A DNA stretch of 64,000 nucleotides from Alphaproteobacteria bacterium (GTDB lineage Bacteria > Pseudomonadota > Alphaproteobacteria > Rs-D84), in assembly GCA_017617915.1 (NCBI GenBank), contig JAFZVH010000053.1, positions 355-64,354 of the forward strand, in the 5' to 3' direction. Of the stretch, positions 28,721 to 63,996 are shown in pieces (position 1 is the first letter of the stretch; each line of letters opens with the position of its first letter). Position numbers and translations under genes: made by a program. A model generated the notes under the pieces. The model searched no databases. It saw only the letters and a list, made by a program, of their open reading frames with translations, and was not told the origin of the DNA.

Positions 28721-29260
28721 ATGAACAAAACAAGTAAATTCATTATTGCGGCGGCATTGTCGGTTGTGTCGGCGGGTGCATACGCGGCGGGCGAAAACAT
28801 CCCAACATCGCGGGCATACGTGGACAGTAATGTTGCAACCAAACAGGCGATATTGAGTGCGAATGGCGCCAATACCGCGGTAACATTTCCAACAACAACT
28901 GGCGGAACCCCAGGGACCAGAACAATAAATACCAGTCTGGGTAGCAGTACATCTGATACAGGCTTGGCAACCACCGGTTCGATAAACACAGAATTAAATA
29001 AAAAGCAGGGGAATATAAACGGCACCGCGAATACAGTTGTGACCTATACAGGAACATCGGGTGGCGTATCATCCAAGGGTGTGTACAGCAGTGGGTCTGC
29101 ATACAGCGGTCAAACATCCAATTTGACCGAGGCACAACATGTGAACGCGGCGGTTCAGAACGGGTTTAACGCACATTTAACCTGCGCGAATCAAGATTGC
29201 ACATTGTGGAACGTGAACACATTGTCCGGTACATACGTCCCACAACCGGCCAATCCGTAA
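28721..29260 (+). CDS. secreted fibre-like protein (small paralog)
   Basis: SD AAGGAGAAAAGA. Signal peptide MNKTSKFIIAAALSVVSAGAYA. T/S/G/N-rich. Shares a domain of about 120 aa with 29448-30830. Confidence 0.75.
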   Translation: MNKTSKFIIAAALSVVSAGAYAAGENIPTSRAYVDSNVATKQAILSANGANTAVTFPTTTGGTPGTRTINTSLGSSTSDTGLATTGSINTELNKKQGNINGTANTVVTYTGTSGGVSSKGVYSSGSAYSGQTSNLTEAQHVNAAVQNGFNAHLTCANQDCTLWNVNTLSGTYVPQPANP

Positions 29261-29447: not shown

Positions 29448-30830
29448 ATGAAAAAACTTTTACCAATATTTACTGTATTTGCATTGCTTGGCACAAATGC
29501 ATTTGCAACATATTGCTCGGTTGAATTTTTTTGTCAGGACGTTGAGGAATTGGGGTGCGAGATAAGCCAGTTTGGACATCCTATTTGTAATGATCCTAAT
29601 GGTAGTAACGGTCCTTTTGCTGATTATGAAGAATACCCAGAATCCGGGGAAACATCGTTCACAGCGCCGGCGGGCAGTATTTGTACGCCACCCGAAGGTA
29701 AATCGTTAGTTGGTTGGCGTATTGTTATAGATCCAAATGGTTCAGGTGATGGCACTATTTCTGGCTATTCTATGAATGCGAACCCTGGTCAGGTATATAA
29801 TATACAGTTTTCTACATCAGAACTTGCGGCCGCTGGGTGTGATGGCATTGATAATCATGGACCGTTGGAATTCAGATTTGCGGCGGTGTATGGTGATGCG
29901 GAAAGTAGTGCTGACACAGTTATATCATCAAAAAAATATGTTGATGCGGAAATGGCAAAACTGCAACCACAGTTTGCGGGTTTGGGGAACAATAAACTTA
30001 TGACTTACAGTTCAACAACAAATGGTGCAGTAGGCAGCCGTGATATTGTGACAACATTGGGCACCAGCACAACGGATACAAGCGTTCCAACAATTGGTGC
30101 GATAAATACCGCACTGGCCACAAAACAAAATACTGTAAACGGAACGGCGGGATATGTTATGACAAATACAGGAACCGCGGGGTCTGTTGGTGAAAAGCCA
30201 GTATATAGTTCCACCGCCAAGAAAGCGGACGCATTGGTAGAAGCGGGCACATTAAACCAAACAATCATAGATGCGGTGAACAGCGAATTAACAGAAGTAG
30301 CGGGCATAGGTTGGCAAATAAATACAGCGAACAACCTTAGCCTGTTATCATTTGGCATACAATTGCCCGATGCAAGTATCAATGGAACCAGTTATTGCTC
30401 TCGCAATTTAGAAAGTAAAACTGATTATGATGGTCAGTGCAGTGTAACCACTAAAACCGCAATTGGTGCCAGTGGCAGCAAGACTGGCAAATGGGGCGCG
30501 GTAATGCCGTATGGTGATATAGTAGGTAAGAGTGTATGCAGTGCAACAAATGGGACAAATAATACTGCGGCAACAGATGCCCAGGAAAGCAGCCTGACCA
30601 CCGAATTTAACAATCAAACGGGTGTGGGTACCAGTGCGCTAAGCAATGGACAGTTAAATTGCTGGTGCAAGATGGAGAGCATTGCTGGCGAACCTGCTGT
30701 CTCCCGCTGGGTGTTCTTCAGCTCGATCTCGTCGGTGTCCGATTGTGCGTACGCCTGTGCGGGCTACTGCGCTGGCAACGTGCGGGCCCACTCCGCCTTC
30801 CGGTCGGGATTGTTTAACAGCGTGCAGTAA
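29448..30830 (+). CDS. secreted Cys-containing fibre-like protein (large paralog)
   Basis: SD AAAGGAGAAAGGAAC-ATG. Signal peptide MKKLLPIFTVFALLGTNAFA. The central region is homologous to 28721-29260. The Cys-rich C-terminus is encoded by a GC-rich segment. Confidence 0.8.
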   Translation: MKKLLPIFTVFALLGTNAFATYCSVEFFCQDVEELGCEISQFGHPICNDPNGSNGPFADYEEYPESGETSFTAPAGSICTPPEGKSLVGWRIVIDPNGSGDGTISGYSMNANPGQVYNIQFSTSELAAAGCDGIDNHGPLEFRFAAVYGDAESSADTVISSKKYVDAEMAKLQPQFAGLGNNKLMTYSSTTNGAVGSRDIVTTLGTSTTDTSVPTIGAINTALATKQNTVNGTAGYVMTNTGTAGSVGEKPVYSSTAKKADALVEAGTLNQTIIDAVNSELTEVAGIGWQINTANNLSLLSFGIQLPDASINGTSYCSRNLESKTDYDGQCSVTTKTAIGASGSKTGKWGAVMPYGDIVGKSVCSATNGTNNTAATDAQESSLTTEFNNQTGVGTSALSNGQLNCWCKMESIAGEPAVSRWVFFSSISSVSDCAYACAGYCAGNVRAHSAFRSGLFNSVQ

Positions 30831-39616: not shown

Positions 39617-39647
39617 TAAAAAAATCCGCCGAATGGCGGATTTTTTA
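39617..39647. terminator. bidirectional intrinsic terminator
   Basis: An A-run, then ATCCGCC-gaat-GGCGGAT, then TTTTT. Overlaps the stop of the convergent TrpF-like gene. Confidence 0.8.
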
Positions 39648-40391
39648 TTTCGTGCGTCGGTTATACCAGTTAATAGCGTTTGCTAAATATGTGCGTGCCA
39701 AACTAATATCCATCGCGCCAGTTCTGTCGCGCAGACGACCTTCGGCGTCAATCCATGTTTCATAACCATCTGGTAATACAGTATCTATCTTTGCAAGGTT
39801 ATCTGCAACATTTTCTGGCGACAATCCACCCGCATAACCGAACTGTATATCTTTATAAACAGGCACTTGCCAATTTGTTGGGGCAATGCCGGCACCATAA
39901 GAACCATCAAACAGCAGATTAAACTTTGCACCCCTTGCTTTTAATTGTTCTATTTTTTGTTTAATGTTTTGGTTAAACGGTAAGATAACTTCGTATTTAT
40001 CCCAAGTTTTAATAAGTGTTGCTAATCTTTTCGCATCGAACACGTAAGTACAATCACCAATGTTTAATTGAATCCGCCTAATCAAAGGCTCGTTTGTTTT
40101 TGGATGCTGGTGCTTTAAAAATTGTTGAATTTCATCTGGTACATGGCCAAGGCAGATTTCATCACACCATCCATAGTTCACATGTAATGCAATATTTAAT
40201 GGTGTTTTGGATGATTTTACGGCATCTAGTAATTCATTGAACCATATATTACGCGGTTTGCCTTGTGCCATAGCCGATGGATGTGCTTGAACACCCAATT
40301 CCGCCAGTGGCGAAAGTTTTAGCAAATCAATCACACTTGCGGTTGGCAAATTTTCGCGTGGATCAGAACAAGTTATATATCGCAGTTTCAT
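39645..40391 (-). CDS. TrpF-like (phosphoribosylanthranilate isomerase fold) protein, paralog 1
   Basis: N-terminal YITCSD. LLFDGSYGAGIAPTNW...YAGGLSPENVADNL...WIDAEG parallels the TrpF motifs LLD..GGSG..FDW...GGLNPENV...VDVSSG. Confidence 0.6.
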   Translation of the reverse strand: MKLRYITCSDPRENLPTASVIDLLKLSPLAELGVQAHPSAMAQGKPRNIWFNELLDAVKSSKTPLNIALHVNYGWCDEICLGHVPDEIQQFLKHQHPKTNEPLIRRIQLNIGDCTYVFDAKRLATLIKTWDKYEVILPFNQNIKQKIEQLKARGAKFNLLFDGSYGAGIAPTNWQVPVYKDIQFGYAGGLSPENVADNLAKIDTVLPDGYETWIDAEGRLRDRTGAMDISLARTYLANAINWYNRRTK

Positions 40392-40403: not shown

Positions 40404-41144
40404 TTAATGTTCTAATACATACTTCAATGCGTTTTGGATATAGAGTTTTGCGCGTGCAACATCGAATTGTTTAGTGTCGGTTGTTTTTAATTTCCCTTCG
40501 GCGTCAATCCATGTTTTATAATTCCGCGGCAACAGGGCATCTATCTTGGCCAAATTATCCGCAATATTTTCTGGCGACAGGCCACCGCTGTATCCCATTT
40601 TATGTTTTTTTGAAACTGGTGCCTGCCATGCATCTGGCGAAACTCCACGCCCGCCCGATGCATCAAACAGCATTGAAAATTTTGCGCCCGTTTTATCCAG
40701 TTTTTGCAATCTTGTCGCTTGGGCTGGTGTATATTGAAATATAAATTCTATGTCTGGATATGCGCGAATAATTTGTGAAACTTTGTCCGCGTAAAAACGA
40801 TATTTTTCTTTGCCACCGTTGATATTTATCTGAACGCGTCTGATAATCGGTTTTCCATTTGCACGTTTCATATCCCACATACGGTGCAATTCATAAGGAA
40901 TACGTCCATGGCAAAGTTCTGTACGCCATTCGCTGTTCACATGCATGGCCAGATTTACATCTGTATCGCGTGCCGCATGCATTAGCGTATCAAACCAAAC
41001 ATATCGTGGCATATTGGCCGAGAATTTTGACGGATGTGCCTGAATCGCAAACTCTGACATTGGATAGCGTTCGCCAAGTGCGATAATATCATCGACATAA
41101 TTATATTCGCGCATATCACTGCAAGTTATTTTTTCAAGTTTCAT
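40404..41144 (-). CDS. TrpF-like protein, paralog 2
   Basis: KITCSD, MLFDASGGRGVSPDAW...YSGGLSPENIADNL...WIDAEG. SD AAAGGAG. The start lies 11 nt inside the rlmN 3' end. Confidence 0.6.
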   Translation of the reverse strand: MKLEKITCSDMREYNYVDDIIALGERYPMSEFAIQAHPSKFSANMPRYVWFDTLMHAARDTDVNLAMHVNSEWRTELCHGRIPYELHRMWDMKRANGKPIIRRVQININGGKEKYRFYADKVSQIIRAYPDIEFIFQYTPAQATRLQKLDKTGAKFSMLFDASGGRGVSPDAWQAPVSKKHKMGYSGGLSPENIADNLAKIDALLPRNYKTWIDAEGKLKTTDTKQFDVARAKLYIQNALKYVLEH

Positions 41145-51985: not shown

Positions 51986-52441
51986 ATGAAAACAGAATCA
52001 GGTCGTTCTTTGATAGAAATAGTCGGTGTTTTGGCGGTGACGGGTGTAATGACGGCCAGTGCGATAGGGATATATAATTCTATACGTACTAATCAACACA
52101 ATACGATTGCAACTGCAGAATTGCGGGAAGTTGCCAAGAATACAAAACTGTTGATGGAAATGCGCGGCGATTACAGTGGCGTTTCGGTTGATTATTTAAT
52201 CAAGGCAGGTGCATTGAAAAACGAAAAGCCGCCAGTTGGTACATCGTGGGATGTTGATGTTGATATAGATAAGACCGCGTTCGTAATCAAACTGTATGGT
52301 TTATCGCGCAGCGAGTGTGAATATTTTGCGGTTGCGGTGCCTGCGTGGGCAACGGATGTTTTGGTCAATGGCTATCATATCGACAAAGCGCCAGATTGTT
52401 TTTCTGGTTCTGAAAATGAAATATTTTTTAAGGTAAAATGA
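51986..52441 (+). CDS. type IV pilin-like protein (class III signal peptide)
   Basis: MKTESG|RSLIEIVGVLAVTGVMTASAIGIY: a 6-aa leader, Gly, Glu at +5, then a hydrophobic helix. 151 aa with two C-terminal Cys residues (SECEYF, PDCFSG). Confidence 0.7.
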   Translation: MKTESGRSLIEIVGVLAVTGVMTASAIGIYNSIRTNQHNTIATAELREVAKNTKLLMEMRGDYSGVSVDYLIKAGALKNEKPPVGTSWDVDVDIDKTAFVIKLYGLSRSECEYFAVAVPAWATDVLVNGYHIDKAPDCFSGSENEIFFKVK

Positions 52442-53109
52442 AGCGAATATTAGTCCTTTTGTCGGTGATTCTTGGCGGGTGCGCAGGATATCAAAGTCCG
52501 GATAGAGCGCAGTGGCAGATGTACCTGAAAGGTGCAAGTTTTATGGAAATGAACGAAACTGCGCGTATAGCCAAAAAACCAATATTCCAAGGCGATGGTG
52601 GACGCACAGTCGCAGAAAGTGTAAAACAAAGTGCGACTACGGAATATGGCGACAAAACGCAAAACGAAAATGCAATGTATATCGGCTATATGTCCAAATT
52701 AGAAAACGAATTATATGACGCATTGCGGCGCCCTGGGTTGTCGGTTCAGCGCGCGGGTACAGATGTTGTTGTATTGATGATTCGTGATGCGCTTATGGAA
52801 CTAAATGCGCCAGAGATTTCAGCCGATGGTGATAAAAATCTGAAAATTGTGTCAGATATACTGAAAAAATACGATGCAACATTTATAGAGATTGCAGGCT
52901 ATACAGATTCTATGCGTGATACATCTGCGGCAAATGCGCTTTCATTTGATATGGCGTCGCGTGTTGCAGTTTATTTGGCGCGCGCAGGGGTAAAACCAAC
53001 GCGAATGTTTATTGTTGGTCGTGGTGCGGCGCGTCCTATTGCCGCCCAAGATGAATTGGGTCGTCTGACCAACAGACGCGTAGAATTGCGCATACTGCCG
53101 GTGCGGTAA
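52438..53109 (+). CDS. OmpA-domain lipoprotein
   Basis: Lipobox ILGGC. C-terminal OmpA/MotB-like IEIAGYTDS...NRRVELRILP. ATGA overlap with the pilin-like gene. Confidence 0.8.
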   Translation: MKRILVLLSVILGGCAGYQSPDRAQWQMYLKGASFMEMNETARIAKKPIFQGDGGRTVAESVKQSATTEYGDKTQNENAMYIGYMSKLENELYDALRRPGLSVQRAGTDVVVLMIRDALMELNAPEISADGDKNLKIVSDILKKYDATFIEIAGYTDSMRDTSAANALSFDMASRVAVYLARAGVKPTRMFIVGRGAARPIAAQDELGRLTNRRVELRILPVR

Positions 53110-53848: not shown

Positions 53849-53866
53849 TCGTCAAAACGATATTAT

Positions 53867-53900
53867 AAAAACCGCCAAATGGCGGTTTTTATTTTTTTTT
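53867..53900. terminator. bidirectional intrinsic terminator
   Basis: AACCGCC-aaat-GGCGGTT followed by a long T-run. Sits between convergent genes. Confidence 0.8.
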
Positions 53901-54380: not shown

Positions 54381-55748
54381 TTGCATTTAGAACGTGGAAA
54401 TTTTTTATTGCAATCGCTGTTGGCATTGACGCTGGTCTTTATGTTTATCCCGTTTTTCGCCAATCGCTTGGCATCGCGCAATATAGATGCCCAGTTATAT
54501 TCCGCAACACATCAGGTTGAAACTGCGCAAACTGCGGCGAAATTGTTTATTCAAGAAAATGCAAATTCTTTACCTTTTGCCCAGACGCGCATTGCAGGGA
54601 CCGAGTTTTCAGATAAACTGGAACCATATGGCTTGCCTTTGGGTTTTGTCCCGCGTACTGCATTAGGCCAAGATATTGCGTTGTATGTTATCAAGGATGA
54701 AAACGGTGTGGCGGCATTTTTGCGACTTTCAGGTGGCAGGTTGAATGGTCTGCAAAGGGCGGAATTGGCGAGACGCATCGGATTCTTTGCCGCCTATGAT
54801 TCAACAAATTCGAATGGTGATATAGATGTAGGTGTTCAACTTGGTGAAACATATTCTGATATTGTTCGCAGAAATGAACAGAATTATTCTATGACTGGCT
54901 TTTTGACTGATCTGGATATGGGGAATTTTAAGTTAGATAATGCCGCTAATATTTTTGCAAATCGTCTTGCATCAGATACAGGCGAAATAACAACGCTAAC
55001 GATTACAGGCAGTGAATCCGGTCGGCGTGAGCGCAGCAAGATTGCACAGATAAACACAAATAAAACAGTCTTTCAATCCAGTGGCGGCGAAGCGGCACTT
55101 TCTTTGACACGTGGCACACTGAAAGCAGACAGTGTTGTAGGTCGAACAATTTCAAAGTTCGGTGAAACTGGAAATCTGACGGCGGTGGATGCGGCGGTGG
55201 ATGCTTTTGATATGTCTGTTGGGCGTATTGGTTTTACAGGCCCCAGTAAATGGAACATTGGTTCGGATTTAGTGACCAGTCGTATAAGTTTCAGCACAGA
55301 AAGATTGGATGTTTCGTCTTTTATAAATGTCACGCGCGGGCAAGATGTGTATATCGATTATGATACTTTGTCATACAGCAATTCCAGTGGCATAGACACA
55401 GATGTTATAAATACTTCGCATATAACATTGCGCGACCAAACATCCAGCAGTCTGTCGCGCGGTGGTGATGGTGCGGTTATTTTGGATATCAGACCTGCCG
55501 GTACATCTGTATTGCCAGACGCATTGGTTGATGGTATAAACAATGGCGCATTTGCGATACTTGCAAACCCAACTAAAGATGACGCCACAACAATAGACTG
55601 TAATTCTGTGATATCATCGCTTGGTGGTGTGTACAATCAAAAATCTTTGGCGCACAATATTATTTGTCAGTATGTCTTTTGGCAAAGGTTAGAGCGCAGA
55701 ATAAATATCAAACAATGTTTAATCGAGGGCGGCAGTGATTGTAAATAA
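54381..55748 (+). CDS. giant prepilin-like protein 1
   Basis: SD AAGGAG, then TTG 54381. (M)HLERG|NFLLQSLLALTLVFMFIPF, followed by about 430 aa. Motifs TDLDMGNFKLDN and GEITTLTITG are shared with the next two genes. Confidence 0.65.
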   Translation: MHLERGNFLLQSLLALTLVFMFIPFFANRLASRNIDAQLYSATHQVETAQTAAKLFIQENANSLPFAQTRIAGTEFSDKLEPYGLPLGFVPRTALGQDIALYVIKDENGVAAFLRLSGGRLNGLQRAELARRIGFFAAYDSTNSNGDIDVGVQLGETYSDIVRRNEQNYSMTGFLTDLDMGNFKLDNAANIFANRLASDTGEITTLTITGSESGRRERSKIAQINTNKTVFQSSGGEAALSLTRGTLKADSVVGRTISKFGETGNLTAVDAAVDAFDMSVGRIGFTGPSKWNIGSDLVTSRISFSTERLDVSSFINVTRGQDVYIDYDTLSYSNSSGIDTDVINTSHITLRDQTSSSLSRGGDGAVILDIRPAGTSVLPDALVDGINNGAFAILANPTKDDATTIDCNSVISSLGGVYNQKSLAHNIICQYVFWQRLERRINIKQCLIEGGSDCK

Positions 55749-56934
55749 ATGGCGAATTTTTTCTGGTACAAACGCGGTGCGCGCCCAATGTGGTGGCGGA
55801 TTGGTAGAGGTCTTGTTGGCCATGGTAATAATTGCAGTTGCAGCGCCATTTACTTACTCTATGATTGCTGATACTACGCATATGATACACGATATGGCGG
55901 TGGCAAATGATATTTTAAGTCTGCGTGATGGTGTGTTAAACTTTGTGCGCATAAATCAAGACTTGTGGCCAGATGTCATCCAGATAAAAATGTCAGATGA
56001 AGAATTAGCAAAGTTTTCGGATGGCATATCTTCGGGCTTTATTGACAAGTACACTTATAAAAGTGGTACGGTCATAGATGTCTATTTGGCGTTTGATTTG
56101 CAAATCAGTCCGCGCCGCGCCGCACGTATCGCGGCAAATGTTGGTTCAAACGCGGCGATTGTCGGAACAGATGGTATTGCATATGGCGATACTTGGGCGG
56201 TGACGGCACCAGATTACAAGTTTGGGACACTGGTGTATAAAATCAGTCGTAATTTGACAGACTTTGATACTTCGCGCTTTTTGCATCGTGGTTCTTCGGG
56301 TGAAGAAAACCTGAATGTTATGGAACGCGATTTGAATATGGGTGGTAATGATATCTATAATGTGGGCGAGATAGATGCACACTCGGTACGTGTCAGAAAT
56401 TTAAATGCAACGTTTGTAAATGCCGATACAATAGATGCACGAAATGTTTATTTTTCATCTGGTGCAAATATGAACGGTGATAATGTCAATATAAACACTT
56501 TGCGCGTGTCTGGCGATATCAGTGGTTTTAGAAATATCGAAGCACAAAAATTAAATGGTTCTAATTTTACGGTAAACGGTCGTATTATTGCGGACAGGGC
56601 AACGATAAATGAATCTATCAACATCGGACGCAATTTAAATATTAAATCAACAAGTTTGAAAACCATAAGCGGCTTTACAGGGATGACGGTTGGTTCTGTC
56701 TATGCGCCGTATATTTCAACAAGTGAAATAACCTTTTATGATAATTTTGGTTTGACGGTATCGGGTGAATTACTGATGTCGTCAAACGCACCCATCAAGA
56801 TTGGTTCATGGGTTTTCCCATCCAAAGATGCGCCAAGTTTTAATGCGTTGAGTTTGGCGCGTGCACCAATACCACAAATACCAAACAAAGACGAATTCAA
56901 AGAGATAATGGAAAGCGGTTGGCAAACAAAATGA
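55735..56934 (+). CDS. giant prepilin-like protein 2
   Basis: The GTG start overlaps the previous ORF by 14 nt. ...IFSGTNAVRAQCG|GGLVEVLLAMVIIAVAAPF. N-rich beta-repeat body with RDLNMGGNDIYN. Confidence 0.65.
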   Translation: MIVNKWRIFSGTNAVRAQCGGGLVEVLLAMVIIAVAAPFTYSMIADTTHMIHDMAVANDILSLRDGVLNFVRINQDLWPDVIQIKMSDEELAKFSDGISSGFIDKYTYKSGTVIDVYLAFDLQISPRRAARIAANVGSNAAIVGTDGIAYGDTWAVTAPDYKFGTLVYKISRNLTDFDTSRFLHRGSSGEENLNVMERDLNMGGNDIYNVGEIDAHSVRVRNLNATFVNADTIDARNVYFSSGANMNGDNVNINTLRVSGDISGFRNIEAQKLNGSNFTVNGRIIADRATINESINIGRNLNIKSTSLKTISGFTGMTVGSVYAPYISTSEITFYDNFGLTVSGELLMSSNAPIKIGSWVFPSKDAPSFNALSLARAPIPQIPNKDEFKEIMESGWQTK

Positions 56935-58244
56935 GAATAAAAACAAAAATCTTTTCCGGGCTAAATGCGCAGCGTGGAACAGTGCTGATAGAATTTTTGT
57001 TGACGATTGCGTTGGCGGCAACACTGATGCCTTTTATATACAGTTTCCAAATGCGTGCTGTCACGCGCGCAGAAAATGTTCGTGTGTCGCGCGAAATGCA
57101 AAGAATACAAAGCGTGTTTGAACATTATATAGTTCAGAACAAAGACAGTTTTCTGGGGTCGGTTGGGCGCAGCATAATTCGTGTAAATTTGTCTGATTTG
57201 CAAGATTATGGTTTGGATGAAAATTTTGTGTCTGCCGCCGCCGATAAGTACCAATTGCGTGTTTTAAAGTCCAAAGATGCAATGGGGCAGGCGACTTTAC
57301 AGGGCGCAATAGTTTTGAATAATCCAGAAATAACACCGTTGCGGACGCGCGAAATAGTATCACTAGGCGATGATAAAATTGGATTCATAGACGGCACACG
57401 TGCATACGGCGGTTTTGGTACATGGCGCGCAAACACCGCAGATTTTGGTATAGATGCGTCTTCGGGTATTATTCAAATGACCGCGATAAATCGTGATAAT
57501 TCGCTGTATTTGTGGCGGTTGCCAAGTAATAATCAAAGCGATGCAACAATGATGTCGGCATTGAATCTGGGGGCGCGCGATATTAAAAATGCGTCTTTTA
57601 TAAATGCAGGTGGGTTTTCACTGCAAGAAACATACGAAGCACAAAAGTTAGTTGTAAATGATTTGATATTTAACAACCGTACAACAATAGATTCTGAATA
57701 TAAAACCCAGAGTGCATTGGTTTCTGGCGCTTTGTCAGGTGATTCAAAAAATATCTCTGTTAGTGGAACATTTAATCTGGCAGATTTGGCCAAGGTTTCT
57801 TCGTTTACCGCGGATAATTTGTGGACAAATACTCTGACATTATCTGGGCTGTCGACACCATCTGGCGAAATTACAACTCTGCGCGCGGCAGGTGCTTTGG
57901 ATATGACCGAAGGTCGTGTAAATGCGCTTTATGTTACGGTCGGGTTCACAGGTTCAATAACATCGCGTCTTGGGGTGCGTGACAAGATTGTTGATTCGGT
58001 TGATCCTAACTTTTATTGGGATGCTAAATCCAAAGTTGCCAATCTGGTTGATATAAATTCACCGACTTTATCTGATTTGGCGGTCAAAGTTTTACGGCGT
58101 GAATCTGTATCTGGAACGATTGCAACGCGAGTGTTCTCTGCCGCGGCCGCAAACAAAAACGCAACAATGGGGGATTTTTTGAACGCAATAAACGAAATAG
58201 GAACAAATGTTCGTGCAAAATATCGGATGTTGAATTTACAATAA
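56931..58244 (+). CDS. giant prepilin-like protein 3
   Basis: ATGA overlap with the previous stop. MRIKTKIFSGLNAQRG|TVLIEFLLTIALAATLMPF. Motifs SALNLGARDIKN and GEITTLRAAG. The ORF-track TTG start at 56919 is possible. Confidence 0.65.
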   Translation: MRIKTKIFSGLNAQRGTVLIEFLLTIALAATLMPFIYSFQMRAVTRAENVRVSREMQRIQSVFEHYIVQNKDSFLGSVGRSIIRVNLSDLQDYGLDENFVSAAADKYQLRVLKSKDAMGQATLQGAIVLNNPEITPLRTREIVSLGDDKIGFIDGTRAYGGFGTWRANTADFGIDASSGIIQMTAINRDNSLYLWRLPSNNQSDATMMSALNLGARDIKNASFINAGGFSLQETYEAQKLVVNDLIFNNRTTIDSEYKTQSALVSGALSGDSKNISVSGTFNLADLAKVSSFTADNLWTNTLTLSGLSTPSGEITTLRAAGALDMTEGRVNALYVTVGFTGSITSRLGVRDKIVDSVDPNFYWDAKSKVANLVDINSPTLSDLAVKVLRRESVSGTIATRVFSAAAANKNATMGDFLNAINEIGTNVRAKYRMLNLQ

Positions 58245-58275: not shown

Positions 58276-58800
58276 ATGATGAAAGTAAAATGCGAAGTTT
58301 GTAAAACAGAATATTCTTTGCCAAATGCACCAAGTGGCGCTGTTCGCTGTGCGGTTTGTGGCAATGTTTGGCGTATTCAGTCGGGATCGCGCCGCACAAG
58401 CTTTATGGTTTTCTTTGCGTCACTCTGTGCGTTGCTTGCGGCGACGGTATTCGCGGTTGCGGTTATTGTTTCTTCGCGGCGTGATGATCCGGCAAAACGG
58501 CCATTGGTTGCGAGTATAGATAAGGTTGAAACGCTGCCAGAATCCGAAGGTTCGGCGCGCATTCGCGTAAATGGAACAGTTGTAAATCGTTCTGATGATA
58601 TCTATGGCTTGCCAGATTTAATAATAGTTCTGCACGATGAAAGTGGCACGCCAATCGCGCGTCAGCGGTTTATGCCATCGGCAACACTGTTGGATGCAGG
58701 TCAATCTGTACGATTTTCGCATGAATTGACGGGTGATGCATCGGCGGTCAAGAAAGTTTCTGTAGAGTTATTGGATGTAGATACAGGGGGGCAAAAATGA
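58276..58800 (+). CDS. zinc-ribbon (MJ0042-type) membrane protein with DUF3426-like C-terminal domain
   Basis: MMKVKCEVCKTEYSL...VRCAVCGNVW (CxxC...CxxC), one TM, then IRVNGTVVNRSDDIYGLPDLIIVLHDESG. SD AAGGGG. Confidence 0.65.
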   Translation: MMKVKCEVCKTEYSLPNAPSGAVRCAVCGNVWRIQSGSRRTSFMVFFASLCALLAATVFAVAVIVSSRRDDPAKRPLVASIDKVETLPESEGSARIRVNGTVVNRSDDIYGLPDLIIVLHDESGTPIARQRFMPSATLLDAGQSVRFSHELTGDASAVKKVSVELLDVDTGGQK

Positions 58801-59273
58801 AAAGACTTTTAATCGCATTGTTGTTTTGTGTGCCAATGATTGCGGGTGCGACTGATACACCACAAACCCCGCCACCACCGGCGCCAACGCCACGGATAAG
58901 CATTTTTTCAACAACGACTGATTGGGCGGCTTTGACGGGGCTGCCATTGCGTCAGTTCATTGGAAAGTTTAGTTGGACAAATTCAGATGTGTCGCGTGGG
59001 CTGGTGATGTACTATTTGGATGCGTTTCCTTGCTATGGCGAAGCGGACAGCGTCCGCATTTGGCTTGGGCCAAACAAACAGTCGACCGGTACACTGCGTT
59101 TGGTCTGTGTGCACGCACCCAAGACCATCAGTTTTACTTGGCGCAATGCAACGCGTGATGCAGATCAGGCGGTCAGTACAGGAATTTTGAATTGCCCTGT
59201 GACTGGCGAATACGAATTGGACATAGATATTTCAAAATGCACCCGCGGCCCTGAATGGAAGGAATACAAGTAA
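58797..59273 (+). CDS. small secreted protein with Pro-rich linker
   Basis: ATGA overlap. Signal peptide MKRLLIALLFCVPMIAGA, then TDTPQTPPPPAPTP. Four Cys residues. Confidence 0.55.
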   Translation: MKRLLIALLFCVPMIAGATDTPQTPPPPAPTPRISIFSTTTDWAALTGLPLRQFIGKFSWTNSDVSRGLVMYYLDAFPCYGEADSVRIWLGPNKQSTGTLRLVCVHAPKTISFTWRNATRDADQAVSTGILNCPVTGEYELDIDISKCTRGPEWKEYK

Positions 59274-60332: not shown

Positions 60333-62165
60333 ATGAACGTTCTTTCTAAAATAGTCAGTTTTTTGGCGGTTTTCTGCGTGAGTCAGGCGGCAGATGCGGC
60401 GCTGCGTGCGGGCGGTGCGGCCACAAATTCGGCGACATCGCGTGTATCGGTTGCGACCCCTGGGACAACCAGTATTGCATCACCGCGGCGTATGGCCGTG
60501 ATGACGCCGACATCGACAACCGCTGCGACAAGTGCGTCGCTTTTGGCGCAAACAGAGTGCGTTGATTCCTATACTTCTTGCATCAAAGAATCAAATGCTT
60601 GTGGTGAAAATTTTGAAGAATGCACAACAAACGAACTGTTTTACGCGCAAATGCCAAAATGTAACAGTGTTTTGATGCAATGTTCATCTGCGGGGATTTC
60701 GACCTTGTTCGGAACATCAAATACAGCCTATTTATCGGCCGAATATGCAAATTCATATCCCGCCCCAGGCAGTGTGATTGGCCAGTATATTTCGGCAGGT
60801 GAAATACTAAATCGTCTTGATACCGGCAAATGCGTGCAAAGATATACACTGTGTTTGAACGGATCTTCGGTTTGTGGATCGGATTTTGAATTATGCACAA
60901 CTAATGCTGAATTTAAAAAACAGAAGGTTTTCTGCGCGTCTACACTGGCACGGTGTCAGGACGAAGGAAAAATAGAATTATTTGGCACCACCGATACAAC
61001 CCAAGACCCTGTTGCGGACAGTCGGCTAAACCTCTTGATTGTTGCTGGTCGCGATTATGCGGCGGCGCATGCGGTGGATACTTGCTATAAAAAGGCGGAT
61101 ACTTGTATTTTAAGAGAATGCAAAAGCAATCCTCTGATGTGTATAGATGGCACGAACAAGTATCTGGCAGAATTGGCCGGTCAGATAAACAGTAATTCAA
61201 CGGCGGATCCTGAATCTGCAGGTGACACGATTCGTAAAACGGATATAGAAACGCGTTTGAAAAAACTGTGTGCCGATGACATTGGTGGCAGTTCTGAATG
61301 CCACATGGTTGCGAATAACAAAACAACACCACCGTCCAAGAAAGACTTGGTAGATGAGTATAACCGTGGAATTGTTTTGGATACAATTTATAATTTACGC
61401 ACAAATTTCGTTTCAGAAAAGATAGCGGCGGAATACGATGAATTCAATAACACTGCCAAAGATACATGTGCGGAAACGCTTAAATCTTGTGTGGTGCGTA
61501 CATGTGGTGATGGTGTTATGCCGGTTTGCTATCAAAAGGCGTTCAAGACCAATGATCAACCACTGTCGGTAAGTAACAATGAAACACGTGAAACCATCAA
61601 GACTGGCTGCGAATACATTGTAAATTCAGATGCAAGTTGTCAGTATATTGCGGCGAAAGCCAAGAATATTGGTGATTATACACCGGACAAAACATTTGAT
61701 ATCTTGTTCCCTGAATGGACGGCTAAATCCAGCAAAGATCCAATTGGGGTAATAAACTTGCTGAATGCGGATTTGCAAGCGATATACAGTGATGCTGCGA
61801 TTGCACAAATGGAAAAGAACTGCAAACAAGATGTTGTAGATTGTGTTCGTTCAAAGTGCGGTTCAGATTTTGCAAAATGCTATCGCAACAGAAGTGATAT
61901 TATGGGCGACACATATAACACAAGTGGTTCTGGAAATTCCGATGCTGTGGCCAGTTCGGTTGCGCGTAAGTTTGATGCCAGCATGAACAAAGTCAGTGGT
62001 ATTTTGGACTTTACCATTATTCGTGGGCTTTGTGAAAACGAAGTTCAAAACTCGTCTGCTTGTGAACAGCATTTACAGATTCAAAGGGCTAAAAATAGTT
62101 CTGGTCTGAAAACAAAACTTCAAACAAGTTTTGGTGTTCAGCAAACACAAACCAATGCGAAATAA
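60333..62165 (+). CDS. secreted cysteine-repeat protein
   Basis: Signal peptide ...VFCVSQAADA. Two repeats of about 90 aa (ECVDSYTSCIKESNACGENFEECTTNELF... and KCVQRYTLCLNGSSVCGSDFELCTTNAEF...). Three C-x6-C-x4-C-x6-C modules. Confidence 0.75.
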   Translation: MNVLSKIVSFLAVFCVSQAADAALRAGGAATNSATSRVSVATPGTTSIASPRRMAVMTPTSTTAATSASLLAQTECVDSYTSCIKESNACGENFEECTTNELFYAQMPKCNSVLMQCSSAGISTLFGTSNTAYLSAEYANSYPAPGSVIGQYISAGEILNRLDTGKCVQRYTLCLNGSSVCGSDFELCTTNAEFKKQKVFCASTLARCQDEGKIELFGTTDTTQDPVADSRLNLLIVAGRDYAAAHAVDTCYKKADTCILRECKSNPLMCIDGTNKYLAELAGQINSNSTADPESAGDTIRKTDIETRLKKLCADDIGGSSECHMVANNKTTPPSKKDLVDEYNRGIVLDTIYNLRTNFVSEKIAAEYDEFNNTAKDTCAETLKSCVVRTCGDGVMPVCYQKAFKTNDQPLSVSNNETRETIKTGCEYIVNSDASCQYIAAKAKNIGDYTPDKTFDILFPEWTAKSSKDPIGVINLLNADLQAIYSDAAIAQMEKNCKQDVVDCVRSKCGSDFAKCYRNRSDIMGDTYNTSGSGNSDAVASSVARKFDASMNKVSGILDFTIIRGLCENEVQNSSACEQHLQIQRAKNSSGLKTKLQTSFGVQQTQTNAK

Positions 62166-62201
62166 CAAACGGTACCAAATAAGAAAACAAGGGTGAACGA
62201 A

Positions 62202-63548
62202 ATGAAAAAATCGCTAATCTATATATTTCCTGCTATTATGTGCTTAGTGGGAACACATGCAGATGCTGTAACGGGTTGGGGAAACAATAAATCTGTTGCC
62301 AATGCATGGGGGACCGTTGCGCGTGGTTACACAATGAGCGAATACAAGTATGCTGATACAGATGAAAATTTGTGCATTGCAAATGCTGATCCTGACAACG
62401 GTTGTACAGAAGAAGAAGCAAACGAATTGTATGAATGTGGTACATCGGCAAATGGTTGCAAGTATAATGTAAAGATAACCTACACTGACTATCAGTTAAA
62501 ACTTGCCACCGATACCTTGTTTCAACAGGTTTTGGGTACCTTGGAACGCGAGGCCCAAGCGCAATATAATGCCAAACTGACCGAAGAACAAAATATGTGT
62601 GTCGCGGCAAACAGCGGTGGTGTTATGGGGCGCAAAGATATGACCGGTACATATCGCTGGGTAAAATTGAAAAAGAATAAAGTTCCAAAAAGTTATGCGA
62701 CCGCAGGTCTGACAGACAAAGATATAGATAAAAGTAATGATTTGTATGGCTCGTTCTGTGCGGCGCGTGTAACACTGCAATCGGACGATGCAGATATCCA
62801 AGAAGCGATTCGTTCGGGCTCCGCTTGGGCAACAACATATTTTGCGGTTGGCGATGTGTTCACTTGCGGTTCTTGGATTCCACAAGATGAATTGCGGAAT
62901 ATTGCAGAGACAGTTGCGAAAAGAAAATATGGCACAAAAAGCGATGCAACAGATTTAAGTTTGGAACAAATGTGGTGGACCGCGGGTGCCACATTGTTGG
63001 GAACAGGACTTTTTGCCGGTGGTGCAGATTTGTTACAGACCAAAACAGGACTGGGCGGTTTGATTAAGACAAGCAATCCACTGTCAAGTGACCAGCAGAA
63101 AGTTATTGGCTCTTATCAGGATGCTATGAGTGTTTACAGTACCGCGAAGTGTTCTGCTGGCAGTGAATCTAAGTTTGTTGAGTCGTATGATGGCTTTGCT
63201 GATGGAAAGACTCTGCGTAGTTATAGGAAAGACGCTAATGGCACAGCAACTTGTGGAGACGTCAAAACTTATTATACAGACTTAGAATCCAAGGTGAATG
63301 GTTATAATACGTCTTCGAATGATAAAAGGCGCCGTTGGGTTGATGTGGGTTTTGGTGCGGCGGGTGGTATTACGACTTTGTTAGCAACACGTGCATCTAT
63401 GCGGGAAGCAAATGCTAATCAGTGGGATAAAGATACCCAGGCGGCCGTTGATGAATTTATGGCCAATGTAGGCAGTCATATATTCTGCTTTATTGGTGCC
63501 GAGGAAGCCGGTACCTTTGGTGATGTCGTAGAAGTCGGCATGGAATAA
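62202..63548 (+). CDS. exported/membrane hypothetical protein
   Basis: Signal peptide MKKSLIYIFPAIMCLVGTHADA. Two Gly-rich hydrophobic segments (WWTAGATLLGTGLFAGG, VGFGAAGGITTLLA). Several Cys pairs. Confidence 0.7.
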   Translation: MKKSLIYIFPAIMCLVGTHADAVTGWGNNKSVANAWGTVARGYTMSEYKYADTDENLCIANADPDNGCTEEEANELYECGTSANGCKYNVKITYTDYQLKLATDTLFQQVLGTLEREAQAQYNAKLTEEQNMCVAANSGGVMGRKDMTGTYRWVKLKKNKVPKSYATAGLTDKDIDKSNDLYGSFCAARVTLQSDDADIQEAIRSGSAWATTYFAVGDVFTCGSWIPQDELRNIAETVAKRKYGTKSDATDLSLEQMWWTAGATLLGTGLFAGGADLLQTKTGLGGLIKTSNPLSSDQQKVIGSYQDAMSVYSTAKCSAGSESKFVESYDGFADGKTLRSYRKDANGTATCGDVKTYYTDLESKVNGYNTSSNDKRRRWVDVGFGAAGGITTLLATRASMREANANQWDKDTQAAVDEFMANVGSHIFCFIGAEEAGTFGDVVEVGME

Positions 63549-63617
63549 AATCCCCTTCGCTGGCGAAGGGGGGGACCGCGGGACGCGGTGGGGTAGTGGT
63601 GTCACACGCAGTGTGAC
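63549..63617 (+). repeat. multi-hairpin element, copy B
   Basis: P1 CCCCTTCG-ctgg-CGAAGGGG (63552-63571). P2 CCGCG-gga-CGCGG (63576-63588). Conserved GGGTAGTGG. P3 GTCACAC-gca-GTGTGAC (63601-63617). Confidence 0.7.
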
Positions 63618-63996
63618 AGTGATGTATGTTATGAAGATACCTGCTAATAAATCTTTGCGTGGACGTGCGCGTGAGTTGCGCAAGAATTCCACTTTGGCCG
63701 AAGTGTTGTTTTGGAATGTTGTTAAAAATAAACAATTAAATGGTTTAGATTTTGACAGGCAAAAGGTAATAGGAAATTATATCGTTGATTTTTATTGCCC
63801 ACAATTGAATGTTGTGATAGAGATTGATGGTTGTTCGCATGCAACTAAACAAGAATATGATAAGTCACGTGATGAATATTTGAAGTCTTTGGGGATGCAT
63901 ATATTGCATGTGTATGATGAAGATGTAAAGCGTGATATGGACGGTGTTTTGCGTATGGTGTCTGGTTTTTGTGAAAAGTATTTGCAAGATAAATGA
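63613..63996 (+). CDS. DUF559 (Vsr/restriction-endonuclease-like fold) domain protein
   Basis: ARELRKNSTLAEVLFWNVVKNKQLNGLDFDRQKVIGNYIVDFYCPQLNVVIEIDGCSH is the typical DUF559 core. The start is uncertain (GTG 63613, ATG 63622 or ATG 63631) and overlaps hairpin P3. Confidence 0.75.
   Translation: MTVMYVMKIPANKSLRGRARELRKNSTLAEVLFWNVVKNKQLNGLDFDRQKVIGNYIVDFYCPQLNVVIEIDGCSHATKQEYDKSRDEYLKSLGMHILHVYDEDVKRDMDGVLRMVSGFCEKYLQDK

Follow-up and report, generated by a model that had tools for sequence, protein, structure and literature searches.

Type IVb pili carry large minor pilins that are located at the tip; CofB, as a trimer, serves as the initiator, and TcpB likewise starts assembly (PMC6048534; PMC5207764). 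In the known type IVb pili one large minor pilin (PilV, TcpB, or CofB) carries the adhesive or partner-binding domain (PMC6048534; PMC5207764; PMC9045228), and PilV is an adhesin that binds the lipopolysaccharide of recipient cells (PMC9045228). The first subunit of a pilus needs no glutamate at position +5 (Glu5), and GspK of the type II secretion system (T2SS) is without it (PMC6048534; PMC5207764). Here we describe three consecutive genes, whose products we call P1, P2, and P3 (together, the trio), in a 64,000-nucleotide stretch of DNA, referred to as the window (contig JAFZVH010000053.1, positions 355 to 64,354, of assembly GCA_017617915.1), from an alphaproteobacterium of the order Rs-D84. 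This is the order of Candidatus Enterousia, whose genomes of 0.75–1.0 Mb are missing most biosynthetic pathways, respiration, and flagella, and whose members have been proposed to be obligate symbionts or parasites of other cells (PMC12306168). An entry identical to P3 exists in the databases as a hypothetical protein (locus tag J5611_03500, "MAG: Alphaproteobacteria bacterium", MAG being metagenome-assembled genome). According to their sequences, the three proteins belong to the PilV (Shufflon_N) superfamily of large type IV minor pilins, from whose other members they have diverged very far, and we think it probable that they make up the tip or initiation complex of a pilus of the type IVb kind, whose likely shaft pilin, of 151 aa, is encoded upstream.

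The described proteins closest to the trio are the PilV adhesins of the IncI1 and IncI2 thin pili (R64, TP114, and pEA60). The likeness extends to the size class of 400–450 aa, the prepilin N-terminus with Glu5, a homologous N-terminal region of ~230 aa that holds the hallmark LYR...N.M.T.(I/L)(N/D)(M/L).G(N/D).I.N, and the presence of a PilS-like small pilin. In spite of belonging to the PilV superfamily, the trio departs from it with respect to the curated model, the shufflon, and the gene neighbourhood. In fact, the three proteins are only ~20–23% identical to PilV and are undetected by PF04917; they are three fixed paralogues instead of one gene, without shufflon or Rci and with unrelated C-terminal modules; they are unlinked to pilL–pilU biogenesis or MPF_I transfer genes (taking the pEA60 cluster as reference); and they are chromosomal and vertically inherited in a lineage of reduced genomes.

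The relationship to PilV was established by profile–profile comparison with hhalign, while paralogy at the sequence level was evaluated with BLASTP and curated family models were taken from Pfam, NCBIfam, and PHROGs. When compared to an alignment of PilV proteins from seven plasmids, P3 matched at 98.5% (E=2e-15), P2 at 97.7% (E=2.1e-12), and P1 at 97.5% (E=5.3e-12), each match spanning from the leader through LYR..VPG.P.LN.M.TAINM.GNDI.N. With the N-terminal helix trimmed, the values were 96.8% for P3, 94.8% for P2, and 89.0% for P1, and the cross-controls against PilS were negative (0.1–0.6%). Furthermore, a tblastn search with P3 in a collection of 72,556 plasmids matched 170 records, with a best E of 2e-4 over residues 14–344, and all the matches among those listed were annotated as pilV ([quoted passage not shown]); P2 used as query by itself also reached pilV, weakly. 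A hidden Markov model (HMM) of the P3 family, run against 1.84 billion representative proteins, retrieved only 234 relatives. The distant ones resemble P3 only in the first ~230 residues, and two of these distant relatives, P0254 (1.9e-15) and P0248 (2.4e-9), are recognised by Pfam Shufflon_N, which describes the PilV constant region. The architecture of the trio proteins is a pilin domain of ~230 aa at the N-terminus followed by a lineage-specific C-terminal module. Further profile searches aimed at distant relatives returned mostly Enterousia proteins again, and a search of PDB sequences with the P3-family profile gave no CofB or TcpB chain at E<=10 and nothing else usable. An earlier note on this DNA, made from the sequence alone, had entertained an undescribed kind of surface fibre, which gives way here to a known superfamily; moreover, the members of PilV/Shufflon_N are pilins, and placement in a characterised non-pilin family, an outcome that the note had also considered, is therefore not what was found. 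The motif L.MGGN.I.N, which the note had likened to phage fibres, is a hallmark of the PilV constant region. A shufflon, with invertible 3' segments and sfx repeats, was looked for in the trio region and only short repeats at chance level appeared; neither Rci nor another recombinase was found in the conserved neighbourhood.

All three proteins, and the 151-aa pilin, begin with a short basic leader that ends in Gly and is followed by a hydrophobic helix of ~20 aa. The Gly at -1 is invariant in 83–85 loci for the trio, and this invariance, like that of the residue at +5, holds across genomes that are only ~50% identical overall. At +5, P2, P3, and the small pilin have Glu and P1 has Gln, in each case without exception. 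In P3 (RG/TVLIE, the slash marking the predicted cleavage site) the invariant pair is G16 and E21, in P2 (G/GGLVE, with G/ASMLE in relatives) it is G20 and E25, and in P1 (RG/NFLLQ) it is G6 and Q11, conserved in 83 loci and in two sister genera. This pattern bears out the prepilin-type reading of the N-termini in the earlier note and indicates, as far as sequence conservation can tell, that they are class III signal peptides under selection. The leaders of P2 (55735-55795) and P3 (56931-56980) also have in common a conserved (K/R)IF motif, and 19 diverse orthologues all retain Phe8 of the P3 leader, an unusual degree of constancy in a part of a prepilin that is cut away.

The open reading frames (ORFs) lie where they had originally been placed, as our ORF check and independent gene calls on an ENA contig agree, the latter giving the same products of 455, 399, and 437 aa. 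P1 starts at a TTG at 54381, nine bases 3' of an AAGGAG box, and this position holds TTG, GTG, or ATG in the orthologues of 83 loci. The translational coupling proposed for the trio is present at both junctions: the GTG start of P2 at 55735 overlaps the end of P1 by 14 nt, and an ATGA at 56931 couples P2 to P3. The next gene begins 32 nt past the end of P3. The three proteins are mutual paralogues by their sequences, as had been suggested, with BLASTP E values of 3e-11 (P2/P3), 1e-5 (P1/P3), and 0.13 (P1/P2) and hhalign values among the families of 98.6%, 96.6%, and 95.7%; the L[DN][ML]G..[IL].N motif occupies aligned positions in all of them. The shared GEITTL strings, which had been offered as a further sign of paralogy, are not homologous columns, because they are sited at non-equivalent positions (~200 in P1 and ~320 in P3), and none of the tools detected the N/T/S/G-rich repeats that had been ascribed to the protein bodies. 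The GC content across the trio is flat at ~0.42–0.45 and equal to that of the flanks.

A species-level scan, with one genome per species, revealed 223 genomes with a relative. The best 80 of the 223 are all MAGs from the rumen or gut that bear the name Candidatus Enterousia or are listed as unclassified (Alpha)proteobacteria. For synteny we used 85 loci drawn from the 223 species-level genomes, together with sister genera. The trio is fixed between DUF4167/dnaX and rluD in every one of these 85 loci, P1, P2, and P3 being co-present in essentially every locus. The order is the same in 85/85 loci and in the sister genera, with DUF4167 on the opposite strand followed by P1, P2, P3, a ZitP-like gene, a gene for a 158-aa exported protein, rluD, and a gene for a large Cys-rich protein. 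The trios of the sister genera measure 531/455/653 and 444/393/498 aa. Conservation is even along the full length of P1, P2, and P3, unlike in hypervariable adhesins.

A giant PilV-like triplet is not unique to Enterousia. In a second, unrelated uncultured lineage, a tRNA-synthetase gene is followed by exactly three giant PilV-like prepilin genes in a row, with products of 1203, 1150, and 1092 aa, and no pilus machinery was found in the 10 kb upstream of them or in the downstream DNA as far as it was retrieved. This second set of exactly three supports the idea that the number is functional rather than accidental. Another relative of the trio family is the alphaproteobacterial protein P0361 (505 aa; L097:4609-6126, in JANRKK010000012.1 of GCA_033763555.1), a chimera of pilin and tail fibre that combines N_methyl with Peptidase_S74 and whose gene is near the conjugation genes DotD, TraI, and T2SSE. 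Endosialidases and the trimeric tail fibres of phages have Peptidase_S74 as their intramolecular chaperone.

The earlier note had found no pilus or secretion machinery in the window, and this stands for the assembly genes, but a prepilin gene located ~2 kb upstream of the trio had been overlooked. The N-terminus of its product, MKTESG/RSLIEIVGVLAV..., is of the prepilin type, and G6, E11, C111, and C138 are invariant in 16 orthologues. The best matches among PDB sequences were the type IVb pilins TcpA (8uhf, E=0.0033) and CofA (9iuf, E=0.022), and the comparison with plasmid PilS by hhalign gave 95.1% (E=3.2e-8) over 148 columns, end to end. In tblastn searches of the plasmids the matches were weak, nearly all of them annotated "type 4 pilus major pilin". 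These sequence data lend moderate support to the proposal that the 151-aa protein is a type IVb-like major pilin. Its stop overlaps the start of a gene for an OmpA-like lipoprotein (ATGA), which is possibly part of the pilin system, although this is uncertain, and which is followed by the Skp gene. The order dnaX, pilin, OmpA, Skp is retained in 52–54 loci; this block stays adjacent to the trio and is inverted in most genomes. A bidirectional terminator closes the unit and parts it from the trio operon (Table 1).

Next to the trio, on its downstream side, is a gene built like that of ZitP from Caulobacter crescentus, judging from its translated domains, which reach 29.2 bits for Pfam DUF3426 (cut-off 27.7), E=1.4e-6 for Zn_ribbon_4, and 28.9 bits for NCBIfam FxLYD (cut-off 23), and it holds this place in 85/85 loci. 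In Caulobacter, ZitP is needed for pilus biogenesis, its periplasmic DUF3426 recruiting CpaM and the CpaC secretin (PMC5182063). The protein described here is likened to ZitP by its architecture, with zinc ribbon, transmembrane (TM) segment, and DUF3426, and differs in being shorter (174 aa as against 311 aa) and in that neither CpaM, the partner of ZitP in Caulobacter, nor any Cpa/Tad gene was observed. Directly after it, again in 85/85 loci and also in sister genera, comes the small exported protein, for which Pfam, NCBIfam, and a lenient Pfam scan gave no family match. We can speculate that it is a tip partner. It also recalls, equally speculatively, CofJ and TcpF, secreted partners that dock by their N-terminal tail into type IVb minor-pilin trimers. 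Further downstream there are two Cys-rich secreted proteins (60333-62165, 610 aa, and 62193-63548, 451 aa) with no family match, which in most relatives are fused in a single protein of 1045–1239 aa directly downstream of rluD.

Table 1. Coordinates of the trio and of associated features. Positions refer to the window except in the last row; a slash marks the predicted leader cleavage site.
Feature	Position	Strand	Description
P1, PilV-like minor pilin	54381..55748	+	455 aa; 6-aa leader MHLERG/NFLLQ; Gln at +5; four invariant C-terminal Cys
P2, PilV-like minor pilin	55735..56934	+	399 aa; leader ...AQCG/GGLVE; Glu at +5
P3, PilV-like minor pilin	56931..58244	+	437 aa; leader ...AQRG/TVLIE; Glu at +5
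Small prepilin, candidate type IVb-style major (shaft) pilin	51986..52441	+	151 aa; MKTESG/RSLIE...; C-terminal Cys pair
OmpA-family peptidoglycan-binding lipoprotein	52438..53109	+	Pfam OmpA E=2e-12; NCBIfam YiaD-like 6.9e-28
Bidirectional intrinsic terminator	53865..53892	.	12-bp stem; T-run on both strands
ZitP-like bitopic protein	58276..58800	+	174 aa; cytoplasmic CxxC...CxxC zinc ribbon, one TM, periplasmic DUF3426/FxLYD
Small exported protein	58797..59273	+	158 aa; Sec signal, Pro-rich flexible N-terminal tail, 4-Cys globular domain
Second-lineage triplet	L096:10001-20383 (ENA ERZ27257204 k141_660222)		First hits Pfam Shufflon_N; each KGG/xLLE

The structure of P3 was predicted with AlphaFold2 from 149 input sequences (predicted local distance difference test, pLDDT, 74); an earlier model from 19 sequences was too poor (pLDDT 54). 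In the second model a helix (residues 13–69) is followed by a beta-sheet to residue 183, with pLDDT 75–88, and residues 350–437 form a compact C-terminal unit of a sheet and three helices (pLDDT 81–90). Between them, residues 210–320 are extended, with moderate confidence and no intrachain secondary structure, which is compatible with a need for partner chains and proves nothing. The predicted helix and sheet would correspond to a pilin-type domain and are supportive of the assignment. In P1, Cys 407, 429, 446, and 454 at the C-terminus are invariant, as expected for an exported protein.

Other tip complexes offer further terms of comparison. As in TcpB of Vibrio cholerae and CofB/LngB of enterotoxigenic Escherichia coli, the trio proteins are large minor pilins composed of a pilin domain with additional C-terminal domains, and the number of genes equals that of the subunits in the CofB trimer. 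TcpB and CofB are tip-located and initiate assembly, CofB as a trimer, with a secreted partner encoded alongside (PMC6048534; PMC5207764). Unlike in these systems, the trio has no detectable sequence similarity to them and, by analogy, its tip would comprise three gene products, one of them naturally without Glu5. The heterotrimers GspK-GspI-GspJ of the T2SS and PilX-PilV-PilW of type IVa pili are also made of three minor (pseudo)pilins from one operon, and P1 resembles GspK, the apical subunit, in being without Glu5 (PMC5207764). However, these proteins are small (130–330 aa) and non-paralogous, unlike the trio, and no profile similarity to them was found.

All these data suggest a model in which an A24 prepilin peptidase would cut P1, P2, and P3 after the conserved Gly and the three proteins would assemble as a complex that forms the tip of a type IVb-like pilus or initiates it. 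P1, with its Gln at +5, could be the apical subunit, because the first subunit needs no Glu5. The complex would then prime the polymerisation of the 151-aa pilin, and the C-terminal modules may be displayed as an adhesin that attaches the sub-1-Mb, probably partner-dependent Enterousia cell to another cell or to a host surface, while the co-transcribed ZitP-like protein may help to place the outer-membrane channel. From the invariant Gly(-1) and Glu(+5) we infer that the peptidase and the assembly system are somewhere in the genome. The proposal that the trio supplies the tip or adhesin of a filament, with the assembly genes located elsewhere, was already present in the earlier note and is still the best reading.

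Several results weigh against this proposal. The ATPase, platform protein, secretin, and A24 prepilin peptidase were not found in the 64-kb window, in agreement with what had been noted before, and a lenient Pfam scan of the unannotated ORFs of the window revealed no A24 peptidase; the sequence beyond it contains only pheT and ileS on the left and reaches the contig end on the right. None of 10 type IVb biogenesis proteins from pEA60 was found by tblastn in the window and 84 related Enterousia loci (1.61 Mb in total), and none of the 20 largest families of neighbouring ORFs without a member in the window was pilus-related according to Pfam; these include a sigma factor, UvrD, PPDK, integrase, reverse transcriptase, BspA-LRR, and BamB-like proteins. 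The absence of machinery is a local result, because the loci cover the same ~25–30 kb region in each genome. The curated models also fail, since no scan of the trio with Pfam, NCBIfam, or PHROGs rose above a cut-off: PF04917 (Shufflon_N) gave zero matches on 19 members of the P3 family even at E<=10, and PF07963 (N_methyl) and TIGR02532 gave zero matches for P1 and P3 and their best values for P2, of 14.6 versus 21.2 bits and 12.3 versus 16.3 bits. As for the small pilin, its match to PilS falls to 18% once the N-terminal helix is trimmed, and the support for a type IVb-like major pilin is only moderate for this reason. The structure prediction suggested in the earlier note did return a long helix and a sheet, but Foldseek with both P3 models found no significant pilin match in PDB (E<=0.001), so the evidence from the fold is supportive only; the second model had no match in BFVD either at E<=0.001. 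The formation of a heterotrimer is proposed purely by analogy, and alphaproteobacterial homologues of ZitP also occur for reasons unrelated to pili. Finally, the genome survey of Rs-D84 mentions type IV pilus genes only for a different, unrelated lineage (PMC12306168).

It has to be considered, then, whether the trio is derived from pilins but makes no filament, the machinery having been lost in genome reduction and the proteins serving as inner-membrane-anchored structural components of the periplasm or spanning the envelope, possibly with the OmpA-like and ZitP-like proteins. That no machinery genes were found in the window, next to the second-lineage trio, or across 1.6 Mb of related loci would be expected in that case, as would genomes of just 0.75–1.0 Mb and a survey that reports no type IV pili for the order (PMC12306168), and the neighbours OmpA, Skp, LpxD, and FabZ are envelope-biogenesis genes. 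However, Gly(-1) and Glu(+5) serve peptidase cleavage and subunit docking, not a plain membrane anchor, and they are invariant across >80 genomes with ~50% overall identity; conservation extends to the separate small pilin, with its D-region-like disulfide, and the sequence examined represents ~8% of any one genome. We therefore regard the loss of the filament as unlikely. A bolder possibility, which we consider improbable, is that Enterousia and the second lineage keep a conserved pilin set, of three giant PilV-like proteins and one small pilin, without canonical machinery and use an unrecognised assembly route to a cell-to-cell attachment fibre or, in a milder form, that this is the first known obligate heterotrimeric type IVb tip, by which a symbiont would hold its partner.

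The trio could also be the counterparts of GspH-K or TadE/F/G, as minor pseudopilins that belong to a T2SS or a Tad/Flp (type IVc) pilus, a likeness that had been pointed out in the first reading of the sequence and for which there are the short leaders with the G....E(F/V) motif, weak NCBIfam matches to GspK (E=0.047) and ComGG, one JGI annotation as "pseudopilin PulG", and the fact that Caulobacter ZitP serves a Tad-type pilus (PMC5182063). When the family models were checked, no TadE, Tad_N, or T2SS pseudopilin match came near a cut-off: there was no TadE/Tad match at E<=1, GspK reached 13.2 bits against a cut-off of 130, and ComG was likewise far below. The globular domains match PilV specifically, with negative controls, and the best solved relatives of the small pilin are the type IVb TcpA and CofA and not GspG or Flp, so this assignment seems quite improbable to us. 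Very improbable is that the genes are cargo or a remnant of an integrated IncI-like (MPF_I) conjugative element, with a role in stabilising mating pairs, like that known from R64 and TP114. Elsewhere, PilV is characteristic of MPF_I conjugative plasmids, and the related P0361 adjoins DotD, TraI, and T2SSE genes, but the trio occupies the same chromosomal site, from DUF4167/dnaX to rluD, in all 85 loci and the sister genera, its GC content is that of the flanks, and no integrase, relaxase, Dot/Icm gene, shufflon repeat, or Rci was found at the trio loci. The idea that the protein bodies are phage tail-fibre-like modules from a prophage appears hardly credible. The union of N_methyl with the tail-fibre chaperone domain Peptidase_S74 in P0361 and the extended, fibre-like middle segment of the P3 model could be cited in its favour, but there was no PHROG match, no structural match in BFVD at E<0.09, and no relative in the 2.9 million viral contigs of IMG/VR, and the motif that had suggested it belongs, as stated above, to PilV.

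The rest of the window is composed of housekeeping genes (ileS, metG, mreB, accBC, mnmG, fabDG, recF, a TolC-MacAB pump, parAB, mutS, pnp, lptD/F, surA, nusA, infB, and dnaX). In addition, we have observed two secreted S/T/G/N-rich proteins (28721-29260 and 29448-30830) without family match that have the motif T.LG.S.TDT..PT.GAIN..L..KQ in common, the latter with Cys-rich N- and C-terminal parts; both may be lineage-specific surface proteins. Two tandem paralogues of ~247 aa on the minus strand (39645-40391 and 40404-41144), with faint PRAI-like matches (E=0.014–0.1), adjoin rlmN. At the end of the window there is a gene for a DUF559 protein (Vsr-like endonuclease fold; 63613-63996), which also ends an independent 68.6-kb ENA contig and could be an assembly break point.

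Candidatus Enterousia are common bacteria of the gut and rumen with genomes of <1 Mb for which no device for attachment or uptake has been identified so far (PMC12306168). According to our analysis, ~1.5% of an Enterousia genome likely encodes the tip and shaft of a type IVb-style pilus, and the four universally conserved genes involved, the trio and the small pilin, have hitherto been annotated as "hypothetical". They represent a testable candidate for how these cells may hold a partner. Furthermore, a fixed triplet of PilV-like paralogues, one of them without Glu5, would be a natural experiment on the trimeric initiator model derived from the CofB homotrimer. With regard to the family, PilV-type adhesins would exist beyond conjugative plasmids, without shufflons, and are missed by the current family models.

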